DNA of 64,000 nucleotides from a bacterium (GCA_963692865.2 OY843592.1:3712001-3776000), one strand, 5' to 3'. Numbered from the stretch's first letter, positions 4,192 to 36,742 are shown. Numbers and translations: made by a program. The notes: a model not told the origin generated them from the letters alone.

Positions 4192-5483
4192 CTCCCCTTC
4201 CCCCTCGTTTTCATGCCGGGAATCACGGGCAGGATTTGTCCCGCCTGCCGAAGCACGATGACTTTCGAATCCGGTCCCGAAGAATCCAGAGCGGCATCGA
4301 CCGCCGCCCCTATCGATTCTGACCAGCCGAGCCCCATTCTCTCCGCCTCTTCGCGACCGATATTTGGAGAAACCAACACGCCTTTCACACGCCCGGAGAT
4401 GATTCTTCCGATGGCGACCAGCGTGTAGGCCAGGAGTTTTTCACGAAATTCGCCCGCTTCGACCTTGCAGTAAAGCGCGTCGGGGTCTTTGAATCCATAA
4501 CGCTCGAAATTCGGGAATTGTGGCGAAACGCCCTCCCGGCACTCCGCTGCCAGGATGATCACCCCGCCATCGCGGCAGACGACGTCCCCCGCGCACACAG
4601 CCTTGATGGCCTGACGCAAATCGATGTCGGAGGGGAAGGCTTCCGCGACGACGACTTCCGCCTTCTCAGGGATCGACGCGCCGTATAGTTTCAGGCATCG
4701 CCCACAGCCCGCCTCGTGGGCTATTTCCACGTCTCCGGCAACGGCGTCGTAGATTCTTCTTTCATCCATCATGATCGTGTTGACGATGAAGCGCAGTCCC
4801 GCCCGGCGTGCAACGCGAACGAACGCTTCCCTCACCCTGTTGTCGAAGTTGCCGAGAATTTCGCTCATCTCATAATCCAGAGCGGCCCAGTGAGTCGCCT
4901 CTATCGTGGCCTCGCCGCAAATGCCGGGCATCACGCTCTTCGCCCCGCCGGAGAAACCCGCCGTCGCATGGGGGATGATACTGCCGACGGATATAACGAG
5001 ATCCGTCCCCAGGATTTCCCGGTTCATCAACACGTCGAAGCCCAGCGCGCTCCTTCCCAATGAAGTCATTCTGGCGGGATTTTTCCACTCGTGGTTGAGA
5101 ATCTCGAATCGCGCGGCCAGATCGTCGCCGAACTTGCGCCTTATCTCCTCATCCGTCATCGCGCGGTGCGTGCCCAGGCCGATCAGGATACGGACCGAGG
5201 AATCGGGGACGCCCACCTCGGCGAGTTCTTCCAGAATGAGGGGGAGCACGCGATGAAGCGGGGTATGGCGCGTGTTGTCGTCGGTGACGATCAACACCCT
5301 TTCGGCGCTTTTGGAAATCTCCCGAAGAGGGGGAGCGCCGATCGGGTTTCGAATCCGCTCTCTGAGGACTTCGTCGTCAAGACCCTTGCCTTTCAGAGGG
5401 GCGGGGCCATAGACGCCCACTAGCCGTCCATCTTCGACTTCGAAGTCGTCGAATAGATTATTTGTCAGTGATATTTTGGCCAT
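4188..5483 (-). CDS. larA: LarA-family nickel-pincer-nucleotide-dependent 2-hydroxyacid racemase/epimerase
   Basis: NPIGAPPL, DDNTRHTP, GLGTHR, PHATAGFSGGAKSVMPG, H in HWAA and QAIKA match the LarA catalytic and cofactor-binding residues. Confidence 0.85.
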   Translation of the reverse strand: MAKISLTNNLFDDFEVEDGRLVGVYGPAPLKGKGLDDEVLRERIRNPIGAPPLREISKSAERVLIVTDDNTRHTPLHRVLPLILEELAEVGVPDSSVRILIGLGTHRAMTDEEIRRKFGDDLAARFEILNHEWKNPARMTSLGRSALGFDVLMNREILGTDLVISVGSIIPHATAGFSGGAKSVMPGICGEATIEATHWAALDYEMSEILGNFDNRVREAFVRVARRAGLRFIVNTIMMDERRIYDAVAGDVEIAHEAGCGRCLKLYGASIPEKAEVVVAEAFPSDIDLRQAIKAVCAGDVVCRDGGVIILAAECREGVSPQFPNFERYGFKDPDALYCKVEAGEFREKLLAYTLVAIGRIISGRVKGVLVSPNIGREEAERMGLGWSESIGAAVDAALDSSGPDSKVIVLRQAGQILPVIPGMKTRGKGR

Positions 5484-7369
5484 CAGCCCGTTCCCGCCTC
5501 ATCGTTTCGCCACAATTCGGAATCGGGGGATGAGAAAATATCCACCCATTCTGCGCGCCAGTTCTCGCTGCTCCTGTAATAACGACCCGCAAACTCGGCG
5601 ACGACTTCCCGCGTGCGTCCATCCTCCCACCACGAATCGACGTCGGGCCAGATGGCGTTCAGATGCTTCGCCGCGCCTTCGCCGGATGAATGGTGAACAC
5701 CTACGCTTGAGAGTTTTTTGAAGTATGGCGTGGCATGGCGTGAAACCCGCCAGGCGTTTTGATGGCCAAAGAAAAGGGTCGGAATGCGCGCCGCCATCGT
5801 GTAGGCCGCCGTCGTCCCCGGACGATCGAGAACGCAAACGCCGCACCCCGCCAATGCGGGCGAGAGCCTGCTCGGCATGTATCGCGCCAGTTTTCCATGA
5901 AGTATTTTCACGTCGGTATATCGTGTTTCGATATAGGCCTGATCGTAGCGGTTGTTTCTCCTGCGCATGTACGGCCTGTAAAACAAGGCGGATCGAGGCG
6001 CGTCGTCCAGGTGTTCTATGAAACTCGCTTTCTCCCGCATATAGTGCGGTATGTCTTCGGGAATGCAGTCCGCCGCCAGCCACTTGAGATGGGGGGTGAG
6101 TTCGGAGCTGACCAAAATGATGGACAGGCCACGTTTCTTGCTCCGCTTCATTTTCGAAAGAAAAGGAGAGGCCGCCGGCATGGCCCTTACCCGATAATCG
6201 GATTGGCGCCTCCATCCCCACGATATGAATCGATCGGCCGCCTCATACTCGGCCAGATGATGCCAGGGCGCCGATTCGATAACGCCGTAGTTTCCCCCAT
6301 GCTGATTGATGACCAGCTTTACGGGGCGTTTTTCGAGGAGAGCGGCCACGTAAAAATTCGATTGATCGTCATTTCCGAGATGACCATAGGCGATGGTGTC
6401 CGTCCAGGGCGCCGTCGCTCTCACCCTTGACAGCGCTTTTTTCTCGTTTTCCAGATAATGATCCGTGAAAACCTTCGGCATCGTCTCCGAAACGAGTCCA
6501 TCCAGAACACTCAGGAAAATCCCGGCCTCCCCACGCGATACGTCCAGAATCGATCGGAGTTCTCCAACCACGTCTTCTTTGGTAAGGCGCACGCTTTCCG
6601 CTTTCGGTGTTTCCCGAAACGACCTCGCGGCCTCCCCCCGGCGTCTTCCACCTCGAAACAGCATGCGCAAGGAAATACAAAGGGCATCCAGCGGACTCAG
6701 GCCAAGCACCTTATGAAATTGCACGCGCCCTATGTTGGAAGAGAGAATGCTCGTCCAGCGGTAGGCCTCCATTTTTCTTTGTACTTTCCTGAATATGGCG
6801 TAGTTTTCCGTTGGCGGCGCGCCGGATGAGTGGTTTGAGGAAAAATACGCATCTTCCGGGGCGGGCGCGCCGTCTTCCATCGTCCACCCCTGCGGCTCGT
6901 ATGCGCGGATGAACCTGCTGAAGATCAGCCGGTTCAATGGATCGTCGATCATCATCTGGTTGAAATGCGGTGTCGTGATGGATGAGAGAGTTTCATCGCG
7001 CGGCGCGAGATACACCAGATACGGAACCCCGCTCCTCACCCTGTTTCTGATGCGCAAAAACCGCTCGAAAGAGCACATGACGAGACTGGTGAGCCACGGC
7101 ATCAACAAGATGCGCCAGTAGCGATTCGAATAAGAGCGGTCGTGGCTTTCGTTTTGTCTCAAGGCCAATCGAGAGATGTAAAACTCACAAACCTTCTCCA
7201 GCCTTCTGGAAACGAAGTGAACCTCCTCGCTCCGAAGAGGCGGCTCGATTCCGTATTTCCTCCACTCCCACCCGAAAAACTTGGGCGCAGGGAGTGACCA
7301 GGGGCCCAGATGCTCGGTTCCCCTTTCATCCGGGATGGAATCGATTTTCGTCAAGATAAGTCGTTTCAT
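5483..7369 (-). CDS. LIC12162-family putative transferase (surface-glycan loci)
   Basis: LGPW, YSNRYWRILLMPWL, QHGGNYG and FISWGW motifs. Start placed at MKRLILT because the ORF-track extension overlaps the tRNA. Confidence 0.7.
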   Translation of the reverse strand: MKRLILTKIDSIPDERGTEHLGPWSLPAPKFFGWEWRKYGIEPPLRSEEVHFVSRRLEKVCEFYISRLALRQNESHDRSYSNRYWRILLMPWLTSLVMCSFERFLRIRNRVRSGVPYLVYLAPRDETLSSITTPHFNQMMIDDPLNRLIFSRFIRAYEPQGWTMEDGAPAPEDAYFSSNHSSGAPPTENYAIFRKVQRKMEAYRWTSILSSNIGRVQFHKVLGLSPLDALCISLRMLFRGGRRRGEAARSFRETPKAESVRLTKEDVVGELRSILDVSRGEAGIFLSVLDGLVSETMPKVFTDHYLENEKKALSRVRATAPWTDTIAYGHLGNDDQSNFYVAALLEKRPVKLVINQHGGNYGVIESAPWHHLAEYEAADRFISWGWRRQSDYRVRAMPAASPFLSKMKRSKKRGLSIILVSSELTPHLKWLAADCIPEDIPHYMREKASFIEHLDDAPRSALFYRPYMRRRNNRYDQAYIETRYTDVKILHGKLARYMPSRLSPALAGCGVCVLDRPGTTAAYTMAARIPTLFFGHQNAWRVSRHATPYFKKLSSVGVHHSSGEGAAKHLNAIWPDVDSWWEDGRTREVVAEFAGRYYRSSENWRAEWVDIFSSPDSELWRNDEAGTG

Positions 7370-7512
7370 TCGTCGGGCGCTTTCCTCGCGCCTCATCGCA
7401 TACGCATGAGGCGCGGACGGAGCAACGGCGCTGATGACCGTCCCCCCAAGGCGCGCGTTGTTACACCCTCGCGCCGCCCGACTTGACGGGAAAGGAATAT
7501 GGGTGCTCTGGT

Positions 7513-7590
7513 TGGCGTCCCCAAGGGGATTCGAACCCCTGTTGCCGGCGTGAAAGGCCGGTGTCCTGGGCCAGGCTAGACGATGGGGAC
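7513..7590 (-). tRNA. tRNA-Glu (anticodon TTC)
   Basis: Reverse complement is GTCCCCATCGTCTAGCCTGGCCCAGGACACCGGCCTTTCACGCCGGCAACAGGGGTTCGAATCCCCTTGGGGACGCCA: cloverleaf, T-loop GTTCGAA, encoded CCA. Confidence 0.97.
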
Positions 7591-7688
7591 CGGCAAACAT
7601 TCATGAGGGCCGGGAAGCGGAGTCCCGAACCATCAAGGGGTCGATTTATACTGGTTTTCGGGCCGAAAGTCCATCCTGCTCCATCGTT

Positions 7689-11983: not shown

Positions 11984-12775
11984 CTAAATCAACCGTTTTC
12001 TGACTTGCCATGCGGCGAACTCTCCCGCGAAAACCAGGGCGATAATGGCCAGCACCAGCACGCCTGATTTTTGCCACTGAAACTGCTTCACGTACAAGAA
12101 CACGTAAAAACCCAGCCCCCCCGCGCCGACGAGACCCAGAATCGTGGAATCGCGCAGATTCATCTCGAAGCGAATGGCCAGATGCGCGACCATCTGCGGC
12201 AGAACCTGGGGAATCAGCCCATGTTGTATGACCTGGACGGACGAGGCGCCCGTGCCCTGCAATGCGAGCAGGGGTTTCGGATCGGTCGCCTCGATTTCCT
12301 CCGCCACGAACCGGCCGAGCACCCCGACCGAGTGAACCGCCAGCGCCAAAACGCCAGGGAAAGGGCCGAGCCCCACGGCGGAGACGAACAACAATGCGAG
12401 AAGCAGCAAGGGGATGGAGCGGACGAACGCCATGAACGCCTTGATGGGCAAATGGACCCAGATCGGCGTCCAGTTCGACGCCGCGAGGACGCCCAGCGGA
12501 TAAGCGAACAGGGCACCCAGAAAAGTGCCCGCAATGGTGGTTTGCAACGTTTCGACAGCCGAGGTCAGCAAAACGTCCCAGACCGACCAGTCGGGCGGCG
12601 TCATCCGGCCAAAAAAGTGAAACAGCTGGGGAATCCCGCGCCAGAATTGCCCGGGTGAAAACTCAGAACCCTGAAAAGACCAGAATAAGAGTGCGCTAAC
12701 CACCAGAAAGAGGCTGATCTTGCCAGCCATACGGCCAGGTGAAAGCGCTTCTGCTTGCTCTCGTTCCGTTCCCAT
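11984..12775 (-). CDS. phnE: PhnE/PtxC-family ABC permease
   Basis: PPDW, RSIP, VGLGPFPGVLAL, FEMNLRDSTILGLVGAGGLG. Confidence 0.85.
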   Translation of the reverse strand: MGTEREQAEALSPGRMAGKISLFLVVSALLFWSFQGSEFSPGQFWRGIPQLFHFFGRMTPPDWSVWDVLLTSAVETLQTTIAGTFLGALFAYPLGVLAASNWTPIWVHLPIKAFMAFVRSIPLLLLALLFVSAVGLGPFPGVLALAVHSVGVLGRFVAEEIEATDPKPLLALQGTGASSVQVIQHGLIPQVLPQMVAHLAIRFEMNLRDSTILGLVGAGGLGFYVFLYVKQFQWQKSGVLVLAIIALVFAGEFAAWQVRKRLI

Positions 12776-13541
12776 TCACGACTCCATTCGTTCCCACGAA
12801 CTCGTAGATTTCACGTATCCTATCATTCGAAAGAGAATTCGAAGAACCATCCCACATGATTTTTCCGTTTTTCATCGCGAGGACTCTATCGGCATACTTC
12901 CGCGCAAGCTCTGGAAGGTGAAGGCTCATCATGAGCGTGAGTTCGTAGGCGTCGCAAACCGACACGAGAAGATCCATGATGTCCTCGGCCAGCGCCGGAT
13001 CCAGGCTCGATACGGGCTCGTCGGCCAGCAGAATCGTCGGTTCCTGCGCCAACGCTCGGGCAATGGCCACGCGCTGCTGTTCTCCACCGGAGAGCGTGCG
13101 GGCGAAGCGGCGTTGCTTGTCCTCGAGGTGCACCTCATGAATGGCCTGCGCGCAGATTCGCAAATCGCGCTGCGAGCAGATTCCCATCATGCTTTTCAAC
13201 AAAGACACATAACCGAGCCTTCCGTGATAGACGTTTTGCCAGACGGTTTCCCGGCCTATCAGATCGAAATGCTGATGAATCATACCGATATGCCGATGGT
13301 GGGTTTTCATCTTTTGCGTATCCTTGATCGGGAAAACATCTCCCATCACGACCACCTTGCCCTCCTGGCAAGGCACGTAGCCTTTCAGCATTCTCATGAG
13401 AGTCGTCTTGCCGGAACCGCTGTTGCCGATGATGGCCACTCTCTCTCCACGAGAGACCTCGAGATGATCGAGGGAAAGAATCGTCCGCCCCTCCATCTCA
13501 ATACGCGCATCTTCGATTTGGATGACCACCTCTTCTGACAT
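12696..13541 (-). CDS. phnC: PhnC-family ABC ATP-binding protein
   Basis: [38 protein letters not shown]. Confidence 0.88.
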
Positions 13542-13544
13542 TTT

Positions 13545-14468
13545 CTACTCCTTCAAAAAACCATACTTGCGAGCCATGTCGGCAACCGATTTATAACGGC
13601 TGTGTCCGACCCTGACGTAACCATCCGTTCCGTAAAGAGCCCGCAGCAAACTGCGATTTTCAGGCTGGTTCATCTTCAACATCGCCGAAACGAATTTTCG
13701 CCTGATTTCAGGCTCCAGCCCTTTGCGCACCACCACGTTGTGGCTGGGAATTCTGGCCGACTGCGCAATGGCGACGACCCGGTCGCGGTGCTCGGGACGC
13801 AGAAGATTGAGCGCGTATTGGCTTACACCCGCAGCGGCGACGAAGCCGCCGACCATCGAGTTGATCGCCTGCTGATCCCCGCCTGCGAAATACACCCTTC
13901 GGAAAAACCCGCCCTCGGGCTTTTCCACTCCCCCCTTCGCCAGACCAGCGCGAATGAAAATGTCGTGGGGGTACATGAACCCCGAACTCGAAATGGGGTC
14001 GACATAAGCAATGGTCTTGCCCCTGAGATCGGAGAGCTTCTTGATGCCGCTGTCCTTGCGCACGAAAATCTTCGAGTAGTAATAGGATTTCCCATCGTAT
14101 ATCTCGCCGAGAACCGCCTCGACTCCCGAATGCCTGTTCGCCAGGACATAAGGCAGCGGAGACATGAAGCTCACGTCCGCCTTTTTCGAAATCATGGCTT
14201 CCACGGCGGCCGAGTAGTTCAGAGTAATGAAATACCGAACCTTGCGCCCCATCTCCCTTTCGAGGAAATTCATCGCCGGCTTCACGTTGCTGATGAGTTT
14301 CTCGGGATTCTCCAGTGGAATGAACGCGACCCGAAGCTCTCTATCGACCGCGTAGAGGGGAGCTGCAGCGAACACCAAGAAACTGGAGATGAGGAGAATC
14401 ACCATCTTGAAACCGGCCCTCTGCGCTCTCGGCGATGATATTCGGATGAAAGGCATGGCTCTGCTCAT
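13545..14468 (-). CDS. phnD: PhnD/PtxB-family substrate-binding protein
   Basis: Signal peptide, LRVAFIP, NYSAAVEAM, DLRGKTIAYVDPISSSGFMYP. Confidence 0.82.
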   Translation of the reverse strand: MSRAMPFIRISSPRAQRAGFKMVILLISSFLVFAAAPLYAVDRELRVAFIPLENPEKLISNVKPAMNFLEREMGRKVRYFITLNYSAAVEAMISKKADVSFMSPLPYVLANRHSGVEAVLGEIYDGKSYYYSKIFVRKDSGIKKLSDLRGKTIAYVDPISSSGFMYPHDIFIRAGLAKGGVEKPEGGFFRRVYFAGGDQQAINSMVGGFVAAAGVSQYALNLLRPEHRDRVVAIAQSARIPSHNVVVRKGLEPEIRRKFVSAMLKMNQPENRSLLRALYGTDGYVRVGHSRYKSVADMARKYGFLKE

Positions 14469-16426
14469 TTCAGTTTGTCCCGGTTTTTCTGGTAAAGCGC
14501 GTGATAAGCTGCGAGTTTATGGTCGGTCATATTCACGTCGCCGGCGAGATGCGCTCTCAGGGCCTCGCTCAGTCTTTCCTCCATCTGATTGAGAATCGGC
14601 AGATTTTCCTCGTCCTGAACATCCCATTTATGGGCCTGCACCTCACGCACCACGGTTTTGAGCAAGACGGTGATCAACTCTTTTTTCTTTCTCTGTTTCA
14701 AACGCTCATACGTGGAGAGGAAAAACTTGAACTCCTCCAACTCCGACTCCAGCGTGTAAACCGTATTCTCAATTCCCTGGACGCCATCTCCCACGGCTTC
14801 GACGTAGGCCGTGAGGTCGTCGATATCTTCTCGGCTCAGCCCCAGCTTGAATTGCCTGTTAAACCACTCGCTCACCGCCCGCAGTGTGGAAAGGCTCCCG
14901 TCGTGGAAATATGGGGCCGTGAATTTCGACGAGAGCAGAGTCGGCGTATCCAAACCGCCGACGCGGAAGGGCTGGTTCCTTCCTCCCGCGGAGCCGATGT
15001 CGTGGCGTTTGTGGTCCACGAAGTTCGCGTTTGGAATGTGACAACTCGCGCAACTCATGCCGCCCATCATCTGGGGGAATTTCCGGTGAAATATCTTCTC
15101 GCCCCGAAGCGCTGCTTTTGAAACCTTCCCGGGATTGAGCCTCCCGCTTATTTTCAGCTTCGGGTTCGGCAAGAACTCGAACTCGTTCATGTAGGCGATC
15201 ATCCCGTCCATGATCATCGGATCGGGCTCGGGACCGTTGAACTCGTTCACGATGACGTTGCGGACGAATTCCCTGAGTGAGGCGAAACGCCCGTTTCTTC
15301 CGTAGGGGGCCGTGAAGCGAATGCCCCGCAAATCAGGCGTGTCCAATGGATCGTGCAGGCCGTTGTTGGCATGGCCGGCGAAGAAGCTGTTCGACACGTC
15401 CATTCCGCCTTTTTCCCCGGAAAGGCCGGGAATAAAGAGTTTGGGATTCGTCACCCCCTTGTTGTGGCAAGTGTTGCAACTGACGCCTAAGCTGCGCGCG
15501 GGTTCGCCGAAAATCTCCGCGCTGTCGAAAGCCATATCGCCCAGGGCGATGAGAAAGGTTTCCGCCTCGTTCACTCCGCGCTCCGCCATTCCGAGAATTT
15601 GTCTGGGACGCGGGAGTTGTTTGTTGATGTCGGAGCCGGGCGGCAGGCGCCAGGGGACTTTCGCTGTTTCAATATACGTTTCGCTCTTCCTGGGACGGGG
15701 CAGAAGCCTGTGCCCTCTTCCGGCCCGGAACCCCGAAAAATTCGCGTGGAAATACCGGCGGATGAACACGGTACTCCTGTGAATTTTCTTGATGTTCATC
15801 GGCCTTGCGCCGATGCCCATCACACCCGCCGCCCCAAGGTGGGAACTCGCCTCGAGCCAATGGATTTGCATCTTTTTCCACGCTTCAGGATCCAGGTGCG
15901 GCAGGGTCTCGGCGAAAGCCCGGGAGATTCTTCGCGCCTCGTTCAGGAGGCTTTTCACCTCGGCTCTGTCCGAGTTCGCTTTGATGGCGTCCAGATGAGA
16001 TATCAACAGCGAGGCGACCGCCCGCGTGGCCAGGGAGAAAACCAGACGACTCCCGTTCTTGCGCGCGGTGACCATGTCCGGTTCTTCATCGCCTCTCGCC
16101 ACGGGTTGGGCCACGCGCTTGGCAACGGCCAACTCTTCCGAGAACCTCTTCGCACCGGGAGAATTCACCCCATTGAGCGCCTCCTCGATACGCCCCATAT
16201 CGGACCAGACCTGCGGCCAGAGCACGGGGTTGAGATTCAAGATGAAGCCGGCGCGACGGTAACTTTCGGCAACGGGATGCAATTCCTCGGGGGGAACGAC
16301 GTGCGCCGATGCCGGGCCGAAACACATCACCAGCAAACCGGCGGCCAGAAACCACATCGGCGCCACCAAGGAATTTTTGATACGCAGAGCAAGCCTCGCC
16401 CCGGGCGTTTTGAGGCCGCAAATCAT
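14465..16426 (-). CDS. Secreted di-heme cytochrome c of the bCcP/MauG superfamily with large accessory N- and C-terminal domains
   Basis: Signal peptide (…PASA|HVVP); two CXXCH motifs (SCNTCH, SCASCH); DTPDLRG..TAPYGRNG and DTPTL..TAPYFHDGS motifs. Confidence 0.8.
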   Translation of the reverse strand: MICGLKTPGARLALRIKNSLVAPMWFLAAGLLVMCFGPASAHVVPPEELHPVAESYRRAGFILNLNPVLWPQVWSDMGRIEEALNGVNSPGAKRFSEELAVAKRVAQPVARGDEEPDMVTARKNGSRLVFSLATRAVASLLISHLDAIKANSDRAEVKSLLNEARRISRAFAETLPHLDPEAWKKMQIHWLEASSHLGAAGVMGIGARPMNIKKIHRSTVFIRRYFHANFSGFRAGRGHRLLPRPRKSETYIETAKVPWRLPPGSDINKQLPRPRQILGMAERGVNEAETFLIALGDMAFDSAEIFGEPARSLGVSCNTCHNKGVTNPKLFIPGLSGEKGGMDVSNSFFAGHANNGLHDPLDTPDLRGIRFTAPYGRNGRFASLREFVRNVIVNEFNGPEPDPMIMDGMIAYMNEFEFLPNPKLKISGRLNPGKVSKAALRGEKIFHRKFPQMMGGMSCASCHIPNANFVDHKRHDIGSAGGRNQPFRVGGLDTPTLLSSKFTAPYFHDGSLSTLRAVSEWFNRQFKLGLSREDIDDLTAYVEAVGDGVQGIENTVYTLESELEEFKFFLSTYERLKQRKKKELITVLLKTVVREVQAHKWDVQDEENLPILNQMEERLSEALRAHLAGDVNMTDHKLAAYHALYQKNRDKLK

Positions 16427-16508
16427 GTTTTCAGTTCTCCATAAAAACCATCAACAAAGAAATTTTATTTGGATTCGAAAAATAAAGTCAACCCTTACTG
16501 AATATATT

Positions 16509-16524
16509 TTTAGTCATGCCTAAA
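16509..16524. promoter_or_regulatory. Putative DtxR/MntR-family metal-repressor operator
   Basis: Near-perfect 16-bp palindrome TTTAGTCATGCCTAAA in an AT-rich region about 85 bp upstream of the di-heme cytochrome start. Resembles TTTAGG-N4-CCTAAA boxes. Confidence 0.55.
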
Positions 16525-16622: not shown

Positions 16623-16655
16623 AAAAAACCGACCCTGAAACAGAGTCGGTTTTTT
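16623..16655. terminator. Intrinsic, probably bidirectional, terminator downstream of glnK
   Basis: AAAAAACCGAC-cctgaaacaga-GTCGGTTTTTT hairpin flanked by A6 and T6. Confidence 0.75.
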
Positions 16656-16776: not shown

Positions 16777-17118
<342 letters not shown>

Positions 17119-17173
17119 TCATTCCTCTCAGATGACGGATGGACTCATCCGGTATAATCCCTTCGCGCCTGCA

Positions 17174-18565
17174 TCAACCCAACCTCTCGCCCGCGTAGGC
17201 CTCCATGGCGTGCTCGGAGATGTCGAGGCCCGCCAATTCATCCTCTGCGGAAACGCGCACGCCCATAACGGCCCTCACCACATGCCAAAGGACGAAGGAC
17301 AAAGCGAAGGTGAAGATACCTACCGCAACGACACCCGCAAGCTGTTTGATGAAGAGCCCCGCGCCGCCGCCGTAGAACAGACCCACGACGCTGTCGTCGA
17401 TGGAAGGCGCGGCGAACAAACCCAGCGCAAGCGTACCGAAGACGCCGCACACAAGGTGAACCGAAACCGCTCCGACCGGATCGTCTATCTTGATCTTGTC
17501 GAGGAACGGAATCGCAACGCAGACGATGAAGCCTGCGGCCAGACCGATAATCACCGCTCCCAGCGGAGCAACGTTGGCGCATGGGGCCGTGATGGCGACC
17601 AGCCCGGCAAGCGCGCCGTTCACGCTCATGGAAAGATCGGCTTTTCCGAACATGGCCCTCGAAGTGATGCTCGAAGCCACGACGCCCGCCGAGGCGGCGA
17701 GGTTCGTCGTCACCGCGATGCGCGCGATGGCGCCTGCGTCTGCGGCCATGGTGCTGCCCGGGTTGAACCCGAACCATCCGAGCCACAAGATGAACCCGCC
17801 CAACGTGACGAGCGGCATGTTGTGGCCGGGCATCGGCTGCATCCGGCCGTCGGAGGTGTACTTGCCGAGCCGCGGGCCGAGGACGATAATTCCGGCGAGT
17901 CCCGCCCAGCCGCCCACGGAATGAACCACGGTGGAGCCGGCGAAATCGAGAAAACCCATACCGCCCAACCAGCCGCCACCCCAGATCCAGTGGCCCTGGA
18001 TGGGATAGATGACGGCGACGAGCAGGAAACTGAAGATCATGAACGAAGAGAACTTGATGCGCTCGGCCACACAACCTGAAACGATGGTCGCCGCCGTCGC
18101 CGCAAACACGAGTTGGAAGAAGAACTTCGCGTAGAGCGGCACGCCCGTCCAATTGAGGGACGAGAAAACACCTTTGTACGCTTCACCCGTGGCCGGGCTG
18201 TTGTCCGCTCCCGAGAGGAAAAACCCATTCGTTCCGAATATCGAGCTTCCGTCCCCGAACATGAGGGCGAAACCCAATATCCAAAACGCCAGGGACGAGA
18301 CGGCGACGACACCGAAGTTCTTATACAGAATGGCGACGGTGTTCTTGGCCCGGCAAAGCCCCGATTCGAGCATCGCGAAGCCTGCGTGCATGAAAAACAC
18401 CAGAAAACCGGCCACCATCACCCACACGGTATCCGCCGCGACTTGCAAATTCGCGAGGCTCTTCGCCATGGCCTTGACATCCTGCGCCCAGCCGTTGCCG
18501 GCAAAGGACAAAACCCCCACGGCGAAGACCAACGCCGCCGTAATGTAGAGATTTCTTCTTCTCAT
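17174..18565 (-). CDS. amtB: Ammonium transporter
   Basis: GFAMLESG, FQLVFAAT, DFAGSTVVH, WLGWFGFN, DDPVGAVSVH. Start chosen after a GGGAGG RBS. Confidence 0.95.
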   Translation of the reverse strand: MRRRNLYITAALVFAVGVLSFAGNGWAQDVKAMAKSLANLQVAADTVWVMVAGFLVFFMHAGFAMLESGLCRAKNTVAILYKNFGVVAVSSLAFWILGFALMFGDGSSIFGTNGFFLSGADNSPATGEAYKGVFSSLNWTGVPLYAKFFFQLVFAATAATIVSGCVAERIKFSSFMIFSFLLVAVIYPIQGHWIWGGGWLGGMGFLDFAGSTVVHSVGGWAGLAGIIVLGPRLGKYTSDGRMQPMPGHNMPLVTLGGFILWLGWFGFNPGSTMAADAGAIARIAVTTNLAASAGVVASSITSRAMFGKADLSMSVNGALAGLVAITAPCANVAPLGAVIIGLAAGFIVCVAIPFLDKIKIDDPVGAVSVHLVCGVFGTLALGLFAAPSIDDSVVGLFYGGGAGLFIKQLAGVVAVGIFTFALSFVLWHVVRAVMGVRVSAEDELAGLDISEHAMEAYAGERLG

Positions 18566-18811
18566 GATCCCTCCCCCGATACGTTTCAGCCATTTCGAGA
18601 ATTCACGTTCGTAAAACATCGTCTTTATTTTGTAGGTGAGAAATATTTCGGTCTCGTTTCCGCCGTATTACTCGAAAGTTAATTGCGCCTTCTTCGCACC
18701 TATCCGCTCCGGTTTGACAGGCGATTTCGTGCGTGTTAGCAATTCCGCCAATTCGATCAAATTTCTTCCGACTAAGCCCTTTTCCGGAATCAACCCACTG
18801 AAGGAGAAACA

Positions 18812-33049: not shown

Positions 33050-36000
33050 TCAATTCAATGACCTGCGTCTCAAGGCAAATTTAGCGTTAGCAATGATGGG
33101 CTGAATATTATTTTTTGAATCTATGTTGTGGCTGGACAAAATACCGAGGTGGTGCCGTTTCCCAAACTGGATGACAATGGTTGCAGCAAGCTCCAGCGCC
33201 TTAATGTCTCTTTGGTGGCTTAACCAAGTCTCCAAGACATTCATCATGTGGTCAGCAGTTCTTGCGGTCTTAAGAAATCTTTCGGCCCAATTACGAGCCC
33301 ATAACCCGTGCGCTTGGCCTATTTTGTTGTCTAACTCTGCCATTGCCCGGTTGTCATCTAGATACATATTATAATTGGTTGATTTTACCCGAGTGTCGAG
33401 GTGCTGTCGGCGTAATTCCAACCAGCCATGAGTGTTGCACGTTTCCCAGAGTCGCAAGATTTCATGCTCTCCAAGATAATCGAAATACGGCAATAGAACC
33501 TGAACCTGCTCAATTCGTGTAATTCCCTGTCGGCCTTTTGTCCAGAGCCCAAATTTTATCGCGAGGTGTTGAAACATGGATTTTGGATCGGGGCAGTTAT
33601 TGATCGTTTCCCCGACGAGATCCGAAAGGCGAGGGTTTGCTGTGTATAGAGCCGCCTGCACGAAATAGCGCGAAAAGCGTAAACTTTCCCAGTGCTTAAT
33701 CAGCAACTGTGTCGATTTCCCTGTGGGAAGTTCCATCAATCGCTCAGCTAATATCCAGTCGATATCCGAAGTGTTATCGCAATCCCAACTACGTTTCACC
33801 GTCTCACCTCGTCGATTCAAAGCCTTGTCGAGGCAATCCGTTAAATCATCTGACCAGATGTAACGCCCGGCTTGCCACCAATAAGGGCCAGCGTCCTGTT
33901 GCAGTTTTTCAACTAGTCCAGGGATGGCCTCAATGTCTTCTCGGCGCAGCCTTTGAAACAACGCTTTATCTGAGAGTTCGTCATCAGCGCAGACGGCTCG
34001 AAGAGCTAGAATGTCTCCTTCCGCTGTTGTAGAGCACCAAACCTGGAAGGCTCGCGACCTTAAATGCTTGCCATGATATTTTTCTGACCAAATCTGATGA
34101 AGTCGGTTACGTGATGCTTTTGACATCGCACGCCCTGTTTTTTCTTGCCGTAGCTCCCATTCATCTTCTGCCGTTATCCCGAATATTGAAATATTGCCCG
34201 TTTGTTCTAGTCGTTTGTCGGTTTCAGCTTGTTCCCGCACTACGAACTCTACCGCATCAGGATGGTCGACGCCGCTCAACATATAAGTAATTGGCCATCG
34301 CAACTCCGGCGAAATTGCCCGCTCGATAAAATACCGGATGGCGCTTTCAGGGAGTTTGTCCCGAAATGCCCAACGAATGTTATAAGCAGCTAGGCTATCT
34401 CGGGGTGAACTTGAATGTTCTTTTTCTGGTTGATCCGACAGCATCGCCCAACTATCGCAAACGGGAGCTAGGAGATCCGCAACTGAATCACCACAGCATT
34501 GAGCACTGGCCCACAAGTAATCCGCAAGCCTTTCAATCCGACTCCCATCGCTCAACCACGCCGTCATGATTGCATCCGCAAGCTTCGGGTTTCCGAGATG
34601 GCCAGCCAATCTCAGTGCACCGGATCTGCTACCGTGTGCCAGTTGGTCTTTGTGCAAAAATTTTTCCAGCGCGCGCATAAGACTTCTGGGAAATCGTTGT
34701 TGTACATGTTCGATTAACTCCAAATGTCCGATGACCGTTATGCCCGGTTCATTAAGGTGACACAGTTTGATGCCCGCCACGAAATCGCCGTTCCGAAATC
34801 TGGCACGTAATCCCCACCAATTATCTTTATCGTGGCGATAACTTTGAACAAGCGAAGTGATATATGATGCATCGATTTCAGAGAGGACCCGGAGCGTATT
34901 CCATCGTAAATCGTGGTTTTGAGCGCCATGGGTAGAGTCTCTATCCAGCCAAGCTTCGGCGGCCTTGAGAATGGCTTGATGCAGATGATTTGTGGGTTCT
35001 CCAAAGATTCGCATTGCGTAGAAAAGCGCAAGGGGATTGGCTTCCTTGACCTTTTCAACCGTTCCCACTGGAATATCTTCACGAGCCAACGCTGCTCCGA
35101 TGATTTCTGCGAAATAAGGTTCCTCAAGCATTTTGTCCGGCATGGCATTGCGGCGTAAGAGATCCGCGGCAGCATCGACATGAAGCCAATCGAGAACGCG
35201 ATCATGACGAAATTCTATTTGCTCGTTTGACGTGGAGCCGACAATGCGAACGACTTCGCCAAACTGAATAATATGGCGGAGCATTTTCGTGGTATCGGGA
35301 GTGTTTTTGAACCAAGAGGTGACGTCAGTCATGACAGGTTCAAGACAACGTCGCTCAAGCATCTCCGTGGCGAAATATCTTAACGTCTCTTGATATTCTC
35401 TTGCTGTAAACTCACTGCGACTTCCAGAAAGTCGTTCAAGACTGCCTCCGATAAATTTACGAATAACGTGTTCGGGAGCTGGTGCTACTCCGGGACCCTG
35501 CAGGCTTATAAGAAGGGGGTCGTGGCCTAGGGCTGACGCCACCGTTTCCGCTTCGAGCTTTGTTACTGGAGTGTCCGCTAACTCGCAACGCCGCTGTACG
35601 GCGGCGAGCCCTTCTTCTGTGGTGAAGGAAGAGACCGTAAGCACTAACTCGCCAATCTTCTTGCGGGCTTCATGAGCAAGCGATGTGAGCATCTTGGGCC
35701 ATACAGGACAAAGAATCTGCCAACTCCCGAGATGATTGTGACCTATCTGCCTGGAGCGCCACTGCATTAGCCTTTCGATGAGTATGGTAGGTTGTCCTGA
35801 TTTCTTGATATCTTCTACTACCATTAACAATGGCATACGCTCCGACGACATGGCGCAAGCTTCCCTTCCCGTACCAGAAGCAAGCCATGGATGTAGTTGT
35901 CTTAGTGTGTCTTCGATAGCCTGCTCAAGTGAGGAAGTTGTTGCGATTACTTCATGTGGAACGATTAATCCAAATCCTCCTGCCTCAATATGTGCATTCA

Positions 36001-36742
36001 GGCGCTTATGGCATGCAACGCTCTTACCGAAACCCGACTCGCCGGTGATAAAAACCAGATCGCGACCGGCTGTGTTTTCCAATGCTTGGTCTAGCTGGCG
36101 GTCGATCCACAACTCGCTACTGTCGAATAATCTGCTGTTTTGAAGACTACGTTGCGATAAATCACGCAACAACTCTTCTGACAGACGCTCCTGATCTATT
36201 CCAAAATATTTGTTACGAATCCACTGTCCCGTTGCATCGTAGTCGAGAAAATGCGCTATCGCCGACCTTGACCAGATAACGACATCAAGGCCAACGGCAT
36301 TACCGGCAGCAGTGACTTCACTCATTAGTGACGCCGACGGTTCTTTGTTTGTCGTCAGGATAAGTGTCGCCCGCAGGTCAGGTATACGCTGCCGATGTTC
36401 CGCGAACAGTTCAGCAGTCTTTACCAGATCTCCGGGTGGACTGGTCGTCTTTCGCTGTTGCTCCGGTTTGCTTTTTGATGGGTCATGGAGCCATTTTGAT
36501 TTTAGTTTCTCGCTACTACTGATGGTATGTTGTACCGTAATCATGTGCGGTGGGTCTGCGCCGGGCACAAAGCCGAGCCCATCGACTGGACCAGGAATTG
36601 TCTTCCCCTGCAGGTTCACTCCAAGATGAGTGAGCAGACGATATCGCTGATCCGCCTCGCGTAATACGGCCGTCGCAAGATCCTCAAACAGGCCTTCATC
36701 TGTGATCTCAGATAACCTTCGCTGTGTCTCTCTATTCGACAT
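33050..36742 (-). CDS. Large STAND/NACHT-type NTPase with N-terminal restriction-endonuclease-like domain (candidate Avs-like defence protein)
   Basis: N-terminal FEDLATAVL...VDG...VQHT; Walker A GESGFGKS; Walker B LMVVED; GHDPLL; FRHDRVLDW; long helical C-terminus. Lower GC than the flanks. Confidence 0.7.
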   Translation of the reverse strand: MSNRETQRRLSEITDEGLFEDLATAVLREADQRYRLLTHLGVNLQGKTIPGPVDGLGFVPGADPPHMITVQHTISSSEKLKSKWLHDPSKSKPEQQRKTTSPPGDLVKTAELFAEHRQRIPDLRATLILTTNKEPSASLMSEVTAAGNAVGLDVVIWSRSAIAHFLDYDATGQWIRNKYFGIDQERLSEELLRDLSQRSLQNSRLFDSSELWIDRQLDQALENTAGRDLVFITGESGFGKSVACHKRLNAHIEAGGFGLIVPHEVIATTSSLEQAIEDTLRQLHPWLASGTGREACAMSSERMPLLMVVEDIKKSGQPTILIERLMQWRSRQIGHNHLGSWQILCPVWPKMLTSLAHEARKKIGELVLTVSSFTTEEGLAAVQRRCELADTPVTKLEAETVASALGHDPLLISLQGPGVAPAPEHVIRKFIGGSLERLSGSRSEFTAREYQETLRYFATEMLERRCLEPVMTDVTSWFKNTPDTTKMLRHIIQFGEVVRIVGSTSNEQIEFRHDRVLDWLHVDAAADLLRRNAMPDKMLEEPYFAEIIGAALAREDIPVGTVEKVKEANPLALFYAMRIFGEPTNHLHQAILKAAEAWLDRDSTHGAQNHDLRWNTLRVLSEIDASYITSLVQSYRHDKDNWWGLRARFRNGDFVAGIKLCHLNEPGITVIGHLELIEHVQQRFPRSLMRALEKFLHKDQLAHGSRSGALRLAGHLGNPKLADAIMTAWLSDGSRIERLADYLWASAQCCGDSVADLLAPVCDSWAMLSDQPEKEHSSSPRDSLAAYNIRWAFRDKLPESAIRYFIERAISPELRWPITYMLSGVDHPDAVEFVVREQAETDKRLEQTGNISIFGITAEDEWELRQEKTGRAMSKASRNRLHQIWSEKYHGKHLRSRAFQVWCSTTAEGDILALRAVCADDELSDKALFQRLRREDIEAIPGLVEKLQQDAGPYWWQAGRYIWSDDLTDCLDKALNRRGETVKRSWDCDNTSDIDWILAERLMELPTGKSTQLLIKHWESLRFSRYFVQAALYTANPRLSDLVGETINNCPDPKSMFQHLAIKFGLWTKGRQGITRIEQVQVLLPYFDYLGEHEILRLWETCNTHGWLELRRQHLDTRVKSTNYNMYLDDNRAMAELDNKIGQAHGLWARNWAERFLKTARTADHMMNVLETWLSHQRDIKALELAATIVIQFGKRHHLGILSSHNIDSKNNIQPIIANAKFALRRRSLN

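Follow-up and report, generated by a model that had tools for sequence, protein, structure and literature searches.

A conserved gene module joining a di-haem protein to a PhnDCE-type transporter, with an MntR/DR2539-type operator-like box, in a marine Nitrospinota bacterium

The window analyzed here is a stretch of 64,000 nucleotides from a marine Nitrospinota bacterium (GCA_963692865.2, OY843592.1:3712001-3776000), whose minus strand carries four genes in the order di-haem cytochrome gene (hereafter cyt), phnD, phnC, phnE. According to the list of open reading frames and to profile searches, cyt (14465..16426, minus strand) encodes an exported di-haem protein of 653 aa, phnD (13545..14468, minus) a periplasmic binding protein of the PhnD/PtxB family with 307 aa, phnC (12696..13541, minus) a PhnC-type ABC ATPase of 281 aa (TIGR02315, 238 bits, below the cut-off of 266), and phnE (11984..12775, minus) a PhnE-type permease of 263 aa (TIGR01097, 266 bits, above the cut-off of 216.7). 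The stop codon of cyt and the start codon of phnD share the letters ATGA, an overlap of 4 bp that can be read directly in the sequence; the true start of phnE is uncertain, because its listed reading frame overlaps phnC by 80 nt. A secreted 653-aa protein with two CXXCH motifs, overlapping phnD by 4 bp and followed by phnC and phnE, was the core of the preliminary description of this region, and reading frames, profiles and sequence all bear it out; the coordinates given there, 11984-16524, are exact. A hairpin with a T-run (16623..16649, minus strand, read by eye) is the likely terminator behind the upstream PII gene, and likely separates the operon from that gene. Its stem is preserved in the locus alignment despite base changes; it is not among the elements listed by the consensus scan. 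Contigs from one sponge metatranscriptome library, with 85-95% likeness, match parts of all four genes; they are no proof of start site, level or transcription, and the parts left uncovered are uninformative.

The di-haem protein begins with a hydrophobic, signal-like N-terminus ending ...GPASA|HVVPPE (cleavage site placed by eye), and carries the motifs CNTCH at 317-321 and CASCH at 459-463, both invariant in 60 homologues. The signal peptide is followed by a helical N-domain (~50-230) and two c-haem domains (~300-550), and a four-helix bundle (553-653) forms the C-terminus. Its placement in the bCcP/MauG superfamily, as originally proposed, holds for the C-terminal haem domain only: the Pfam profile CCP_MauG (PF03150) scores 48.1 bits (cut-off 25.6) only over residues 442-517, corresponding to profile positions 7-76 of 149, and hhalign against the canonical bCcP of this same genome aligns residues 435-549 (97.5% probability, 104 columns), the first haem domain finding no partner in that comparison. 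The best Foldseek E value was 8.6e-3, with a structure model whose haem domains are poor. Fold searches with the whole model and with the N-domain returned only generic helical-bundle matches; the N-domain reached a Z of 7.5 at best and the C-terminal bundle, itself a generic arrangement, one of 12-13; a search of the ESM Atlas with the N-domain gave no usable match. We take the sixth ligand of the electron-transfer haem, Met in bCcP and Tyr in MauG, to lie 14 residues past the histidine of the PY(F/M)H motif. Here Phe occupies that position (522) and Trp the one before it, both without variation, instead of a Met or Tyr ligand; this mapping is provisional. Among the candidates scored, 1086 proteins are homologues at E <= 1e-5, and any names given by their sources go no further than 'cytochrome c peroxidase', 'cytochrome C' or 'hypothetical protein'.

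The phnD product matches PF12974 (188.9 bits, 1.2e-55) and TIGR01098 (176.6 bits, cut-off 112), and falls below the cut-off of the PhnD equivalog TIGR03431 (173.6 bits, cut-off 261). It is the sole strong PhnD-family protein in the genome (189.5 bits, versus at most 30 bits for other matches), and we know of no protein of this family that binds a metal. Its closest solved relatives are PtxB (E 2e-26), ArrX, HtxB, AioX and PhnD, and its own family is marked by the signature E122, Y124, Y130, D157, S162-G163, YFAGGD198, PSH243 and Y279. In the available part of the PtxB study (PMC5700983), the phosphite site is described as an STS-H motif, a hinge Tyr, and a capping Tyr held by an Asp. The oxyanion core of this site is retained in our protein (the hinge Tyr Y94 corresponds to Y130, and STS to S160-S162), while the residues specific for phosphite are swapped: H155 for G197, the capping Tyr for the invariant H243, and D16 for L52. 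Because the core is kept, an oxyanion alone could be the cargo. Over the whole genome, which is 97% complete, PhnJ was not found and no phosphonatase scored above cut-off, in line with the earlier statement that genes for C-P lyase and phosphonatase (PhnX) are absent.

The order cyt-phnD-phnC-phnE is kept in all 31 relatives with a full-length homologue of the di-haem protein (31 of the 61 genomes searched; two families, one class). We also assembled a wider set of 80 loci, taken from public genomes that represent about ten phyla, in which phnD lies on the same strand as cyt and downstream of it wherever room allows, directly adjoining it except in L055. Exceptions are L097, L102 and L108, with 6 kb devoid of phnD, and L094, L101, L104 and L112, with insufficient room or no phnD match; the neighbours of the stand-alone homologues (L097, L101, L102, L104, L108) reveal no common partner. 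Genes for the ATPase and the permease accompany the cyt-phnD pair in nearly all of the 80 loci, and the linkage of the cytochrome to phnDCE that had been noticed in a single window is thus conserved at both scales. Judging from record titles, the carriers are mostly marine, and they include relatives of nitrite oxidisers, sponge symbionts, and deep-sea Planctomycetota, Acidobacteriota and Verrucomicrobiota. In 24 of the 80 loci a DtxR-family gene lies no farther than ~1.7 kb from the module, the regulators being long with a FeoA domain (15) or short (10; L075 has both types); a gene for a PF13557 outer-membrane barrel is found in 17, and one or both of these genes in 35. Pfam analysis of all 42 members of the corresponding neighbour cluster assigned 22 to DtxR and 17 to PF13557, leaving 3 without a family. 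The PF13557 search gave no match in the present genome, a result of little weight since the control was unmatched in every genome too. The arrangement had been put forward as lacking a prior description, and our literature searches likewise found no paper describing a cyt-phnDCE module; such a gene cluster goes unmentioned in the available part of PMC6405878, supplements aside.

A sigma-70-like promoter (16462..16491, minus strand) was recognized by consensus scan upstream of cyt, with 10 of 12 matches: TTGACT, an 18-nt spacer, and TAAAAT. Neither hexamer varies across a 14-locus alignment, and from its sequence this element is predicted to be a strong promoter of the operon. On its upstream side, after a gap of 17 nt, stands the operator-like palindrome TTTAGTCATGCCTAAA (16509..16524, plus-strand reading), of the form TTTAG-N6-CTAAA and the MntR/DR2539 type, with symmetry at 7 of its 8 base pairs. 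There is a single copy of the core TTAG-N6-CTAA in 4,150,441 bases, versus ~21 occurrences expected by base composition. With a weight matrix derived from orthologous boxes the window box scores 33.3 bits and the runner-up site of the genome 18.4 bits; the same scan of this genome brought out no further strong boxes or convincing regulon members. In loci of the same genus the box is at about -97 to -103 relative to the ATG, and its center is ~61.5 bp upstream of the predicted start, beyond the -35 hexamer and the core promoter; at such a position activation fits as well as repression. A widened pattern, T[TG]T[AT]G-N6-C[AT]A[AC]A, drawn up after examples were known, has 44 matches in 900,132 nt of loci, and 31 of these, in 31 loci, lie no more than 250 nt upstream of cyt, where 0.27 would be expected. 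DR2539 is the manganese sensor of Deinococcus, a member of the DtxR family, and its experimental operator as given in the available part of the preprint (bioRxiv 10.1101/2024.02.12.579695) is ATTTTAGTCGCGCCTAAAAT, which has the 5-6-5 form TTTAG-N6-CTAAA in common with the window box. The DtxR/MntR-like palindrome of the preliminary description is therefore real, it equals the DR2539 operator in form as far as that source goes, and it is conserved in homologous loci, both within the genus and, as the widened box, beyond it. When the 80 loci were scanned for the classical 19-bp DtxR/IdeR consensus, allowing up to 5 mismatches, only 4 matches were obtained (L050, L057, L059, L112), just 2 of them immediately upstream of cyt (L059, L112); because of this scarcity we assign the module box to the shorter, 16-bp DR2539 type.

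A DtxR/MntR gene, surmised from the box, does occur in the genome, away from the operon (G000:C1:1544291-1544947). The closest solved relatives of its product, DtxR-1, are DR2539 (8pvt, E 1.1e-39) and 5zr4 (listed as a metal-dependent transcriptional regulator, E 8.6e-38). All three have EDYLK and EAExLEH (EDYLK and EAEELEH in DtxR-1 itself), where the iron-type DtxR/IdeR have EMYLR and EACRWEH. The best NCBIfam model for DtxR-1 is that of Mn-dependent MntR (NF047407, 194 bits, not reaching the cut-off of 350), and the iron DtxR model gives 95 bits, also under its cut-off. Orthologues of DtxR-1 directly adjoin cyt in three relatives (G042, G043, G044). An orthologue is present in 44 of the 61 genomes, versus 31 of 61 with the full-length di-haem protein, and since relatives without the module have it too, DtxR-1 is not dedicated to the module. 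Of the 24 linked regulators, 10 are of the short type and have a Cys where DtxR has C102; in those lineages the metal sensed may be iron or a different one.

Structure prediction suggests that the di-haem protein docks on the PhnD-type binding protein. Three runs gave the pair ipSAE scores of 0.80, 0.73 and 0.75, and none of 3 controls scored above 0.00; of the reference cases, 116 of 157 solved complexes and 2 of 215 mismatched pairs attain the tool's mark, counts that apply only roughly here because our own alignments and haem were used. The predicted runs share at least 90% of contacts, with a pLDDT of at least 85 for the partner. In the model the interface is on the binding cleft and is formed by a conserved N-terminal His peptide, loop 184-208 and a C-terminal motif HKWDVQD, and family-invariant residues of both proteins fall within it. 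In the homologues devoid of phnDCE (L097, L102, L108) all three interface motifs are missing, and both haem motifs are present.

Further features of the genome count in favor of the metal-uptake reading proposed below. A separate canonical bCcP serves peroxide removal. Nramp was not found in this genome; two proteins of the ZnuA family are encoded at a locus that bears the palindrome TTATGTTATAACATTA, unlike the operon box and presumably Zur-like, and these circumstances may leave room for other manganese importers. An FbpA-like Fe(III) binding protein is encoded beside a second, Cys-type DtxR gene, and genome scans did not find the operon-type box at that locus.

We observed how the genes are ordered, that this order and the box are conserved, and which sensors the regulator is related to; from these observations we arrive at a reading to which we give about an even chance: that this is a widely conserved, undescribed envelope uptake module, controlled by a manganese sensor of the MntR/DR2539 type and serving redox-assisted metal uptake. 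We infer its substrate, its redox step and the direction of its regulation, and draw on the predicted complex for the rest. Metal-loaded DtxR-1 would bind TTTAG-N6-CTAAA upstream of the operon and set its transcription, repression under plentiful manganese being the likelier mode. The 653-aa protein would be exported and acquire two c-type haems, its mature N-terminus being the conserved His; on docking, the N-terminal peptide, loop 184-208 and HKWDVQD would jointly cover the cleft of the binding protein. The haem protein may then oxidize or reduce a scarce metal, or capture it, and hand it over to the binding protein, which would pass the cargo on to the PhnE/PhnC importer; the metal is most likely manganese, possibly together with an oxyanion. 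In other phyla, the PF13557 outer-membrane barrel and a regulator gene would complete the cluster. More tentatively, and with clearly less than even confidence, we propose that this is ABC import of a new class, where a binding protein does not pick up its cargo alone but has a dedicated di-haem oxidoreductase docked on its cleft, with the N-terminal His of that enzyme completing the site, and is loaded by it with a metal in a changed redox state, such as Mn(III) produced from Mn(II) or Mn(II) released from Mn(III/IV).

Two alternatives retain import and change the cargo. The module could take up phosphite, a small phosphonate, or arsenic or another tetrahedral or pyramidal oxyanion, oxidized or reduced by the haem protein before import, with control by a metal sensor being secondary. 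The nearest solved relatives of the binding protein (PtxB, ArrX, HtxB, AioX, PhnD), the retained Tyr and Ser loop for oxyanion binding and the lack of a second strong PhnD-family protein in the genome argue for this; however, the phosphite-specific residues are replaced (H243, L52, G197), the whole genome yields neither PhnJ nor a phosphonatase above cut-off, the box and the linked regulators belong to the metal-sensor type and not to the Pho type, and the family-specific residues of the binding protein sit in the predicted protein-protein interface, so that we consider an oxyanion importer unlikely. Comparable oxidation of Fe(II), and binding of Fe(III) with an anion, are familiar from EfeUOB and FbpA, and the haem protein might here oxidize Fe(II), the PhnD-like protein holding Fe(III) and a synergistic anion. 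The Cys at the C102 position in 10 of the 24 linked regulators is consistent with iron, as are the mostly marine carriers, in whose habitat iron is scarce, and the invariant Tyr, His, Glu and Asp that flank the anion site; several manganese sensors of the DtxR family respond to iron too, and DR2539, in the available part of its description, bound DNA with several metals. Against iron are the Mn-type residues of DtxR-1 and of the long regulators elsewhere, whose nearest relatives are manganese sensors, the separate FbpA-like protein beside the Cys-type DtxR gene, a locus at which the box was not found, and the cost that a two-haem accessory protein would probably impose under iron shortage; we hold this version to be decidedly unlikely.

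It is also conceivable that the ABC cargo is unrelated to the haem chemistry, in which case the binding protein might sense or regulate the haem enzyme, or the haem protein might mature the binding protein in the manner of MauG. The usual target of MauG and MbnH is a Trp, and the binding protein has no Trp conserved at the 95% level. Moreover, the ATPase and the permease are kept in nearly all loci and the barrel gene occurs in 17 of 80, both of which fit transport. The direct complex predicted by modelling would suit a sensor or a maturase; ArrX and AioX, of the PhnD family, work as sensors (judging from titles), and MauG and MbnH modify partner proteins (PMC6405878, in its available part). 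Overall we judge this explanation very improbable.

Redox-assisted metal uptake under a manganese sensor, the reading that we prefer, can be placed among known systems. With EfeUOB, in which redox-coupled metal uptake involves the haem peroxidase EfeB, the analogy would be that a periplasmic haem protein treats the metal before a dedicated importer, under metal-sensor control; the two systems are built from unrelated protein families, and our importer is of the ABC kind, has a binding protein of PhnD type and probably carries manganese. Like CcpA, MauG, MbnH and BthA of the bCcP/MauG group, the di-haem protein is periplasmic, with two CXXCH motifs ~140 residues apart and a C-terminal haem domain that aligns; it differs from them in matching only half of the Pfam profile, in a first haem domain without an hhalign partner, in an added ~260-aa helical N-domain and ~100-aa four-helix bundle, neither with an informative fold match, in the Phe at the presumed position of the Met/Tyr ligand, and in its predicted partner, an ABC binding protein. 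PtxABC, HtxBCDE and PhnCDE share the three-part transporter, the fold family of the binding protein, and the oxyanion Tyr and Ser loop; here, in contrast, PhnJ was not found and phosphonatase did not pass its cut-off, the residues capping phosphite are replaced, a metal-sensor operator stands in place of a Pho box, and a di-haem protein is translationally coupled. The likeness to the DR2539/MntR regulon of Deinococcus radiodurans lies in the form of the operator and in DR2539 being the closest solved relative of DtxR-1; the targets there, according to the available part of the source, are Nramp and MntABC-type transporters, whereas here they would be a PhnDCE-type importer and a haem protein, with the box, in this genus, upstream of the -35 hexamer.

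These results bear on the way in which such genes are counted. PhnD-type transporters routinely serve as markers of phosphonate and phosphite uptake in marine metagenomes, and for this subfamily such counts would be wrong, because of the metal-sensor control and the lack of a phosphonate catabolic partner. The module also places a large branch of the bCcP/MauG superfamily, so far uncharacterised, in a context that is linked to function. If it is true that the haem protein loads the binding protein, this would be a new coupling of redox chemistry to ABC import, and a so far unknown route of manganese (or iron) acquisition for bacteria of about ten phyla that live in the sea or in association with sponges.

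The operon occupies positions 11984-16524 of the minus strand, where four genes are tightly packed: cyt, which encodes the 653-aa di-haem protein (14465-16426, from the ORF listing and the sequence), is followed by genes for a PhnD-family binding protein (13545-14468), a PhnC-type ATPase (12696-13541) and a PhnE permease (11984-12775), all three recognized by profile matches. The overlap of the first two genes can be read directly, as the phnD start shares the ATGA of the cyt stop. Directly upstream, on the same strand, profile matches identify amtB and then a PII gene (16777-18619), a neighborhood that is kept in 23 of 23 same-genus genomes (the window's own counted) and not beyond the genus. 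These genes end in a hairpin and T-run, recognized by eye, and the AT-rich spacer between the hairpin and the operon contains the palindrome TTTAG-N6-CTAAA (16509-16524); 17 bases past it lies a promoter-like TTGACT-18 nt-TAAAAT (10/12 matches), the only such site in the region.

The assembly has a size of 4.15 Mb, with 97% completeness and 6.7% contamination. The MAGs closest to it in public databases carry the label Nitrospinota, and several have sponge-like isolate names; most of the sequencing runs that share near-identical words with it are described as sponge, coral or marine metagenomes. Elsewhere in the window, a 1230-aa ORF (33050-36742, minus strand) that matches no Pfam family at E≤1e-5 sits in the stretch of lowest GC (49-54%, versus 60-69% further on), and the region may be an acquired island or encode a large surface protein. 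A 705-aa ORF (5483-7600, minus strand), also with no Pfam match, overlaps at its 5' end the window's single tRNA gene, which encodes tRNA-Glu(ttc) (7513-7590), so that its true start must be further downstream.

The linkage of cyt to phnDCE claimed in the preliminary description is conserved. Among 61 genomes (60 relatives plus the one that contains the window), 31 contain a full-length cyt homologue (58-100% identity), and in 31 of these 31 phnD, phnC and phnE lie directly downstream, as far as the fetched DNA reaches. A wider scan of bacteria and archaea, with one genome per species, yielded 80 loci whose titles name Nitrospinota, Planctomycetota, Acidobacteriota, Verrucomicrobiota/Opitutales, Sumerlaeota, Hydrogenedentota, Oligoflexia, Lentisphaeria, Nitrospirales and one 'Deltaproteobacteria' MAG. 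In nearly all of them phnD follows cyt on the same strand, after one inserted gene in L055; the exceptions among loci with sufficient room are L097, L102 and L108, which have no phnD in the 6 kb downstream of cyt (L102 and L108 being Planctomycetaceae homologues of 43-44% identity), while four loci (L094, L101, L104, L112) offered too little DNA or no match for this check.

The palindrome, whose conservation upstream of cyt the preliminary description had suggested checking, is retained in most same-genus loci about 97-103 nt before the cyt ATG. Its center there is some 61.5 nt upstream of the predicted transcription start, a position that would suit activation as well as repression; the arms are kept (apart from a one-base change in two loci) and the six bases between them vary. 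A search of the whole genome finds the core TTAG-N6-CTAA once, versus about 21 times expected from base composition, and a weight matrix built from the orthologous boxes scores 33.3 bits at the window site versus 18.4 bits at the genome's next best. Other lineages have 16-bp palindromes of similar shape (TTTTG-N6-CAAAA, TGTAG-N6-CTACA), located outside Nitrospinota 17-176 nt before the estimated cyt start. The widened pattern T[TG]T[AT]G-N6-C[AT]A[AC]A has 44 matches in the 80 loci (900,132 nt), of which 31, in 31 loci, lie no more than 250 nt upstream of where cyt is estimated to start, versus 0.27 expected at the rate of the remaining DNA; this count is inflated to some degree because the pattern was widened after examples had been seen, although it includes loci uninspected when the pattern was set. 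Several of the remaining matches sit just before dtxR or a barrel gene preceding cyt. A different near-palindrome, of the TGTTGAGTGCTCTACA or TGTAGAGCGCTCTACA type, is repeated in at least six places of the genome (C1:119188, 349512, 1623462, 1906845 and 2981298; C5:23263), and could represent either a repeat dispersed through the genome or the site of a regulator.

The genome encodes two distinct DtxR-family proteins, and the search for the regulator anticipated in the preliminary description led to the first of them, DtxR-1 (C1:1544291-1544947). Its best solved relatives are Deinococcus radiodurans DR2539 (E = 1.1e-39) and 5zr4 (E = 8.6e-38), whose entry describes it as a metal-dependent transcriptional regulator, with SloR and ScaR next; IdeR and DtxR, which sense iron, rank after these, and have EMYLR and EACRWEH where DtxR-1 has EDYLK and EAEELEH. 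Among NCBIfam models the Mn-dependent MntR model comes first with 194 bits and the iron DtxR model reaches 95 bits, each under its cut-off. For DR2539, the published operator in the Nramp promoter is ATTTTAGTCGCGCCTAAAAT (bioRxiv 10.1101/2024.02.12.579695), whose TTTAG-N6-CTAAA form the window box shares. In three relatives (G042, G043, G044) the DtxR-1 orthologue adjoins cyt. The DtxR-1 gene is present a second time on a 28.7-kb contig (C8:8829-9485; protein 100% identical), a duplication that probably reflects redundancy in the assembly and agrees with its contamination figure. The short gene for DtxR-2 encodes a Cys-type metal site, with Cys at the position of DtxR C102, and adjoins an FbpA/AfuA-like Fe(III) binding-protein gene identified by eye; together (L116:177-1902; C1 about 2508849-2510574) they likely form a separate iron regulon. 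Another palindrome, TTATGTTATAACATTA, lies at C1:2663997, about 160 nt before the first (2664159) of two adjacent ZnuA-family binding-protein genes. It looks Zur-like, and if it is, these two genes would encode zinc, not manganese, importers.

Clustering of the ORFs neighboring the module in the 80 loci gave 42 members, which Pfam resolved into 22 DtxR-family regulators, 17 outer-membrane barrel proteins (PF13557) and 3 without a family. By tblastn, a DtxR gene lies within about 1.7 kb of the module in 24 of 80 loci (15 long genes with an FeoA domain and 10 short ones, L075 having both); the barrel gene, just before cyt or just after phnE, is found in 17, and one or both in 35. In the window's genus neither is present near the module.

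The haem protein has a signal-like N-terminus and two haem motifs (CNTCH 317-321, CASCH 459-463). Its family is highly conserved (50-57% identity between phyla), including the predicted mature N-terminus H-[IV]-[IV]-P-P-E; in public sources its members are called, if anything, 'cytochrome c peroxidase', 'cytochrome C' or 'hypothetical protein'. AlphaFold predicts a helical N-domain and a C-terminal four-helix bundle with confidence, and models the haem domains poorly. The protein appears to be a distant, rebuilt member of the bCcP/MauG superfamily, since hhalign matches the genome's own canonical bCcP (358 aa) to residues 435-549 only (97.5% probability), and fold searches return weak di-haem peroxidase matches (Foldseek E = 8.6e-3) and generic helical bundles. 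The original bCcP/MauG assignment thus holds for the C-terminal haem domain and does not extend by alignment to the rest. With the 358-aa bCcP, the genome already has a canonical enzyme for peroxide removal.

The nearest solved relatives of the binding protein, the sole strong PhnD-family protein of the genome, are PtxB (E = 2e-26), ArrX, HtxB, AioX and PhnD. Compared with the PtxB phosphite site, as described in PMC5700983, it keeps the hinge Tyr (Y130) and the Ser loop (S160-S162), whereas H155 is changed to G197, the capping Tyr to H243 and its Asp partner to L52. Across 54 module-linked binding proteins, N54, P55, Y85, E90, D98, E122, Y124, Y130, D157, S162, G163, Y193-F-A-G-G-D198, Q200, P241-S-H243, R248 and Y279 are at least 95% conserved. 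Beyond the previously stated absence of C-P lyase and phosphonatase genes, we found no PhnJ and no phosphonatase over the cut-off in the genome as a whole.

Co-folding of the haem protein (residues 42-653, 60-row alignment) with two haems and the binding protein (41-307, 38-row alignment) gave ipSAE scores of 0.80, 0.73 and 0.75, against 0.00 for the best of three controls; 116 of 157 solved complexes and 2 of 215 mismatches reach the tool's mark, rates that apply only roughly here because we supplied our own alignments and included a riding ligand. Contact agreement between runs is at least 90%, and partner pLDDT is at least 85. To our knowledge no such complex has been solved, which makes it unlikely that the score reflects memorization by the model. 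The predicted interface comprises residues 42-48, 155, 184-208 and 597-606 of the haem protein and residues 52-53, 83-86, 89-90, 122, 124-125, 157-159, 192-200, 243, 279-281 and others of the binding protein; it consists of family-specific invariant residues, and includes the positions that form the cap over the PtxB cleft. Because Y130 and S160-S162 are absent from the listed contacts, room for an anion or metal site could be left under the cap. The three homologues without phnDCE, together with L101 and L104, keep both haem motifs and APYFHDGS and lack the N-terminal His peptide, the WLE..LG.PG.LG loop and HKWDVQD. This difference independently backs the predicted interface in a suggestive way, not as a statistic, because L101 and L104 belong to the clade of L102 and L108 and two evolutionary events at most are represented.

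The most likely interpretation of these results is a pathway in which a Mn-type DtxR sensor would control the operon, and the exported di-haem protein would dock on the binding protein and load it with a metal, most likely manganese, whose redox state it would have changed or which it would have captured; the PhnE/PhnC importer would then take the metal in, and elsewhere the outer-membrane barrel would complete the path. Precedents are haem-peroxidase-coupled metal uptake by EfeUOB, anion-assisted Fe(III) binding by FbpA, and manganese oxidation by haem peroxidases. Uptake of an oxyanion, which the PtxB-like hinge and Ser loop favor and the altered capping residues disfavor, appears unlikely. 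Iron in place of manganese is somewhat less likely still, and we consider it improbable that the pair of haem protein and binding protein, encoded as it is with an ATPase and a permease, acts as a sensor or maturase.

As far as full-text literature searches show, the module is undescribed. We file it as joining two known kinds of system, metal-sensor-controlled ABC import and redox-coupled metal uptake, with a reasonable chance that a haem enzyme docking on a binding protein would represent a new principle.
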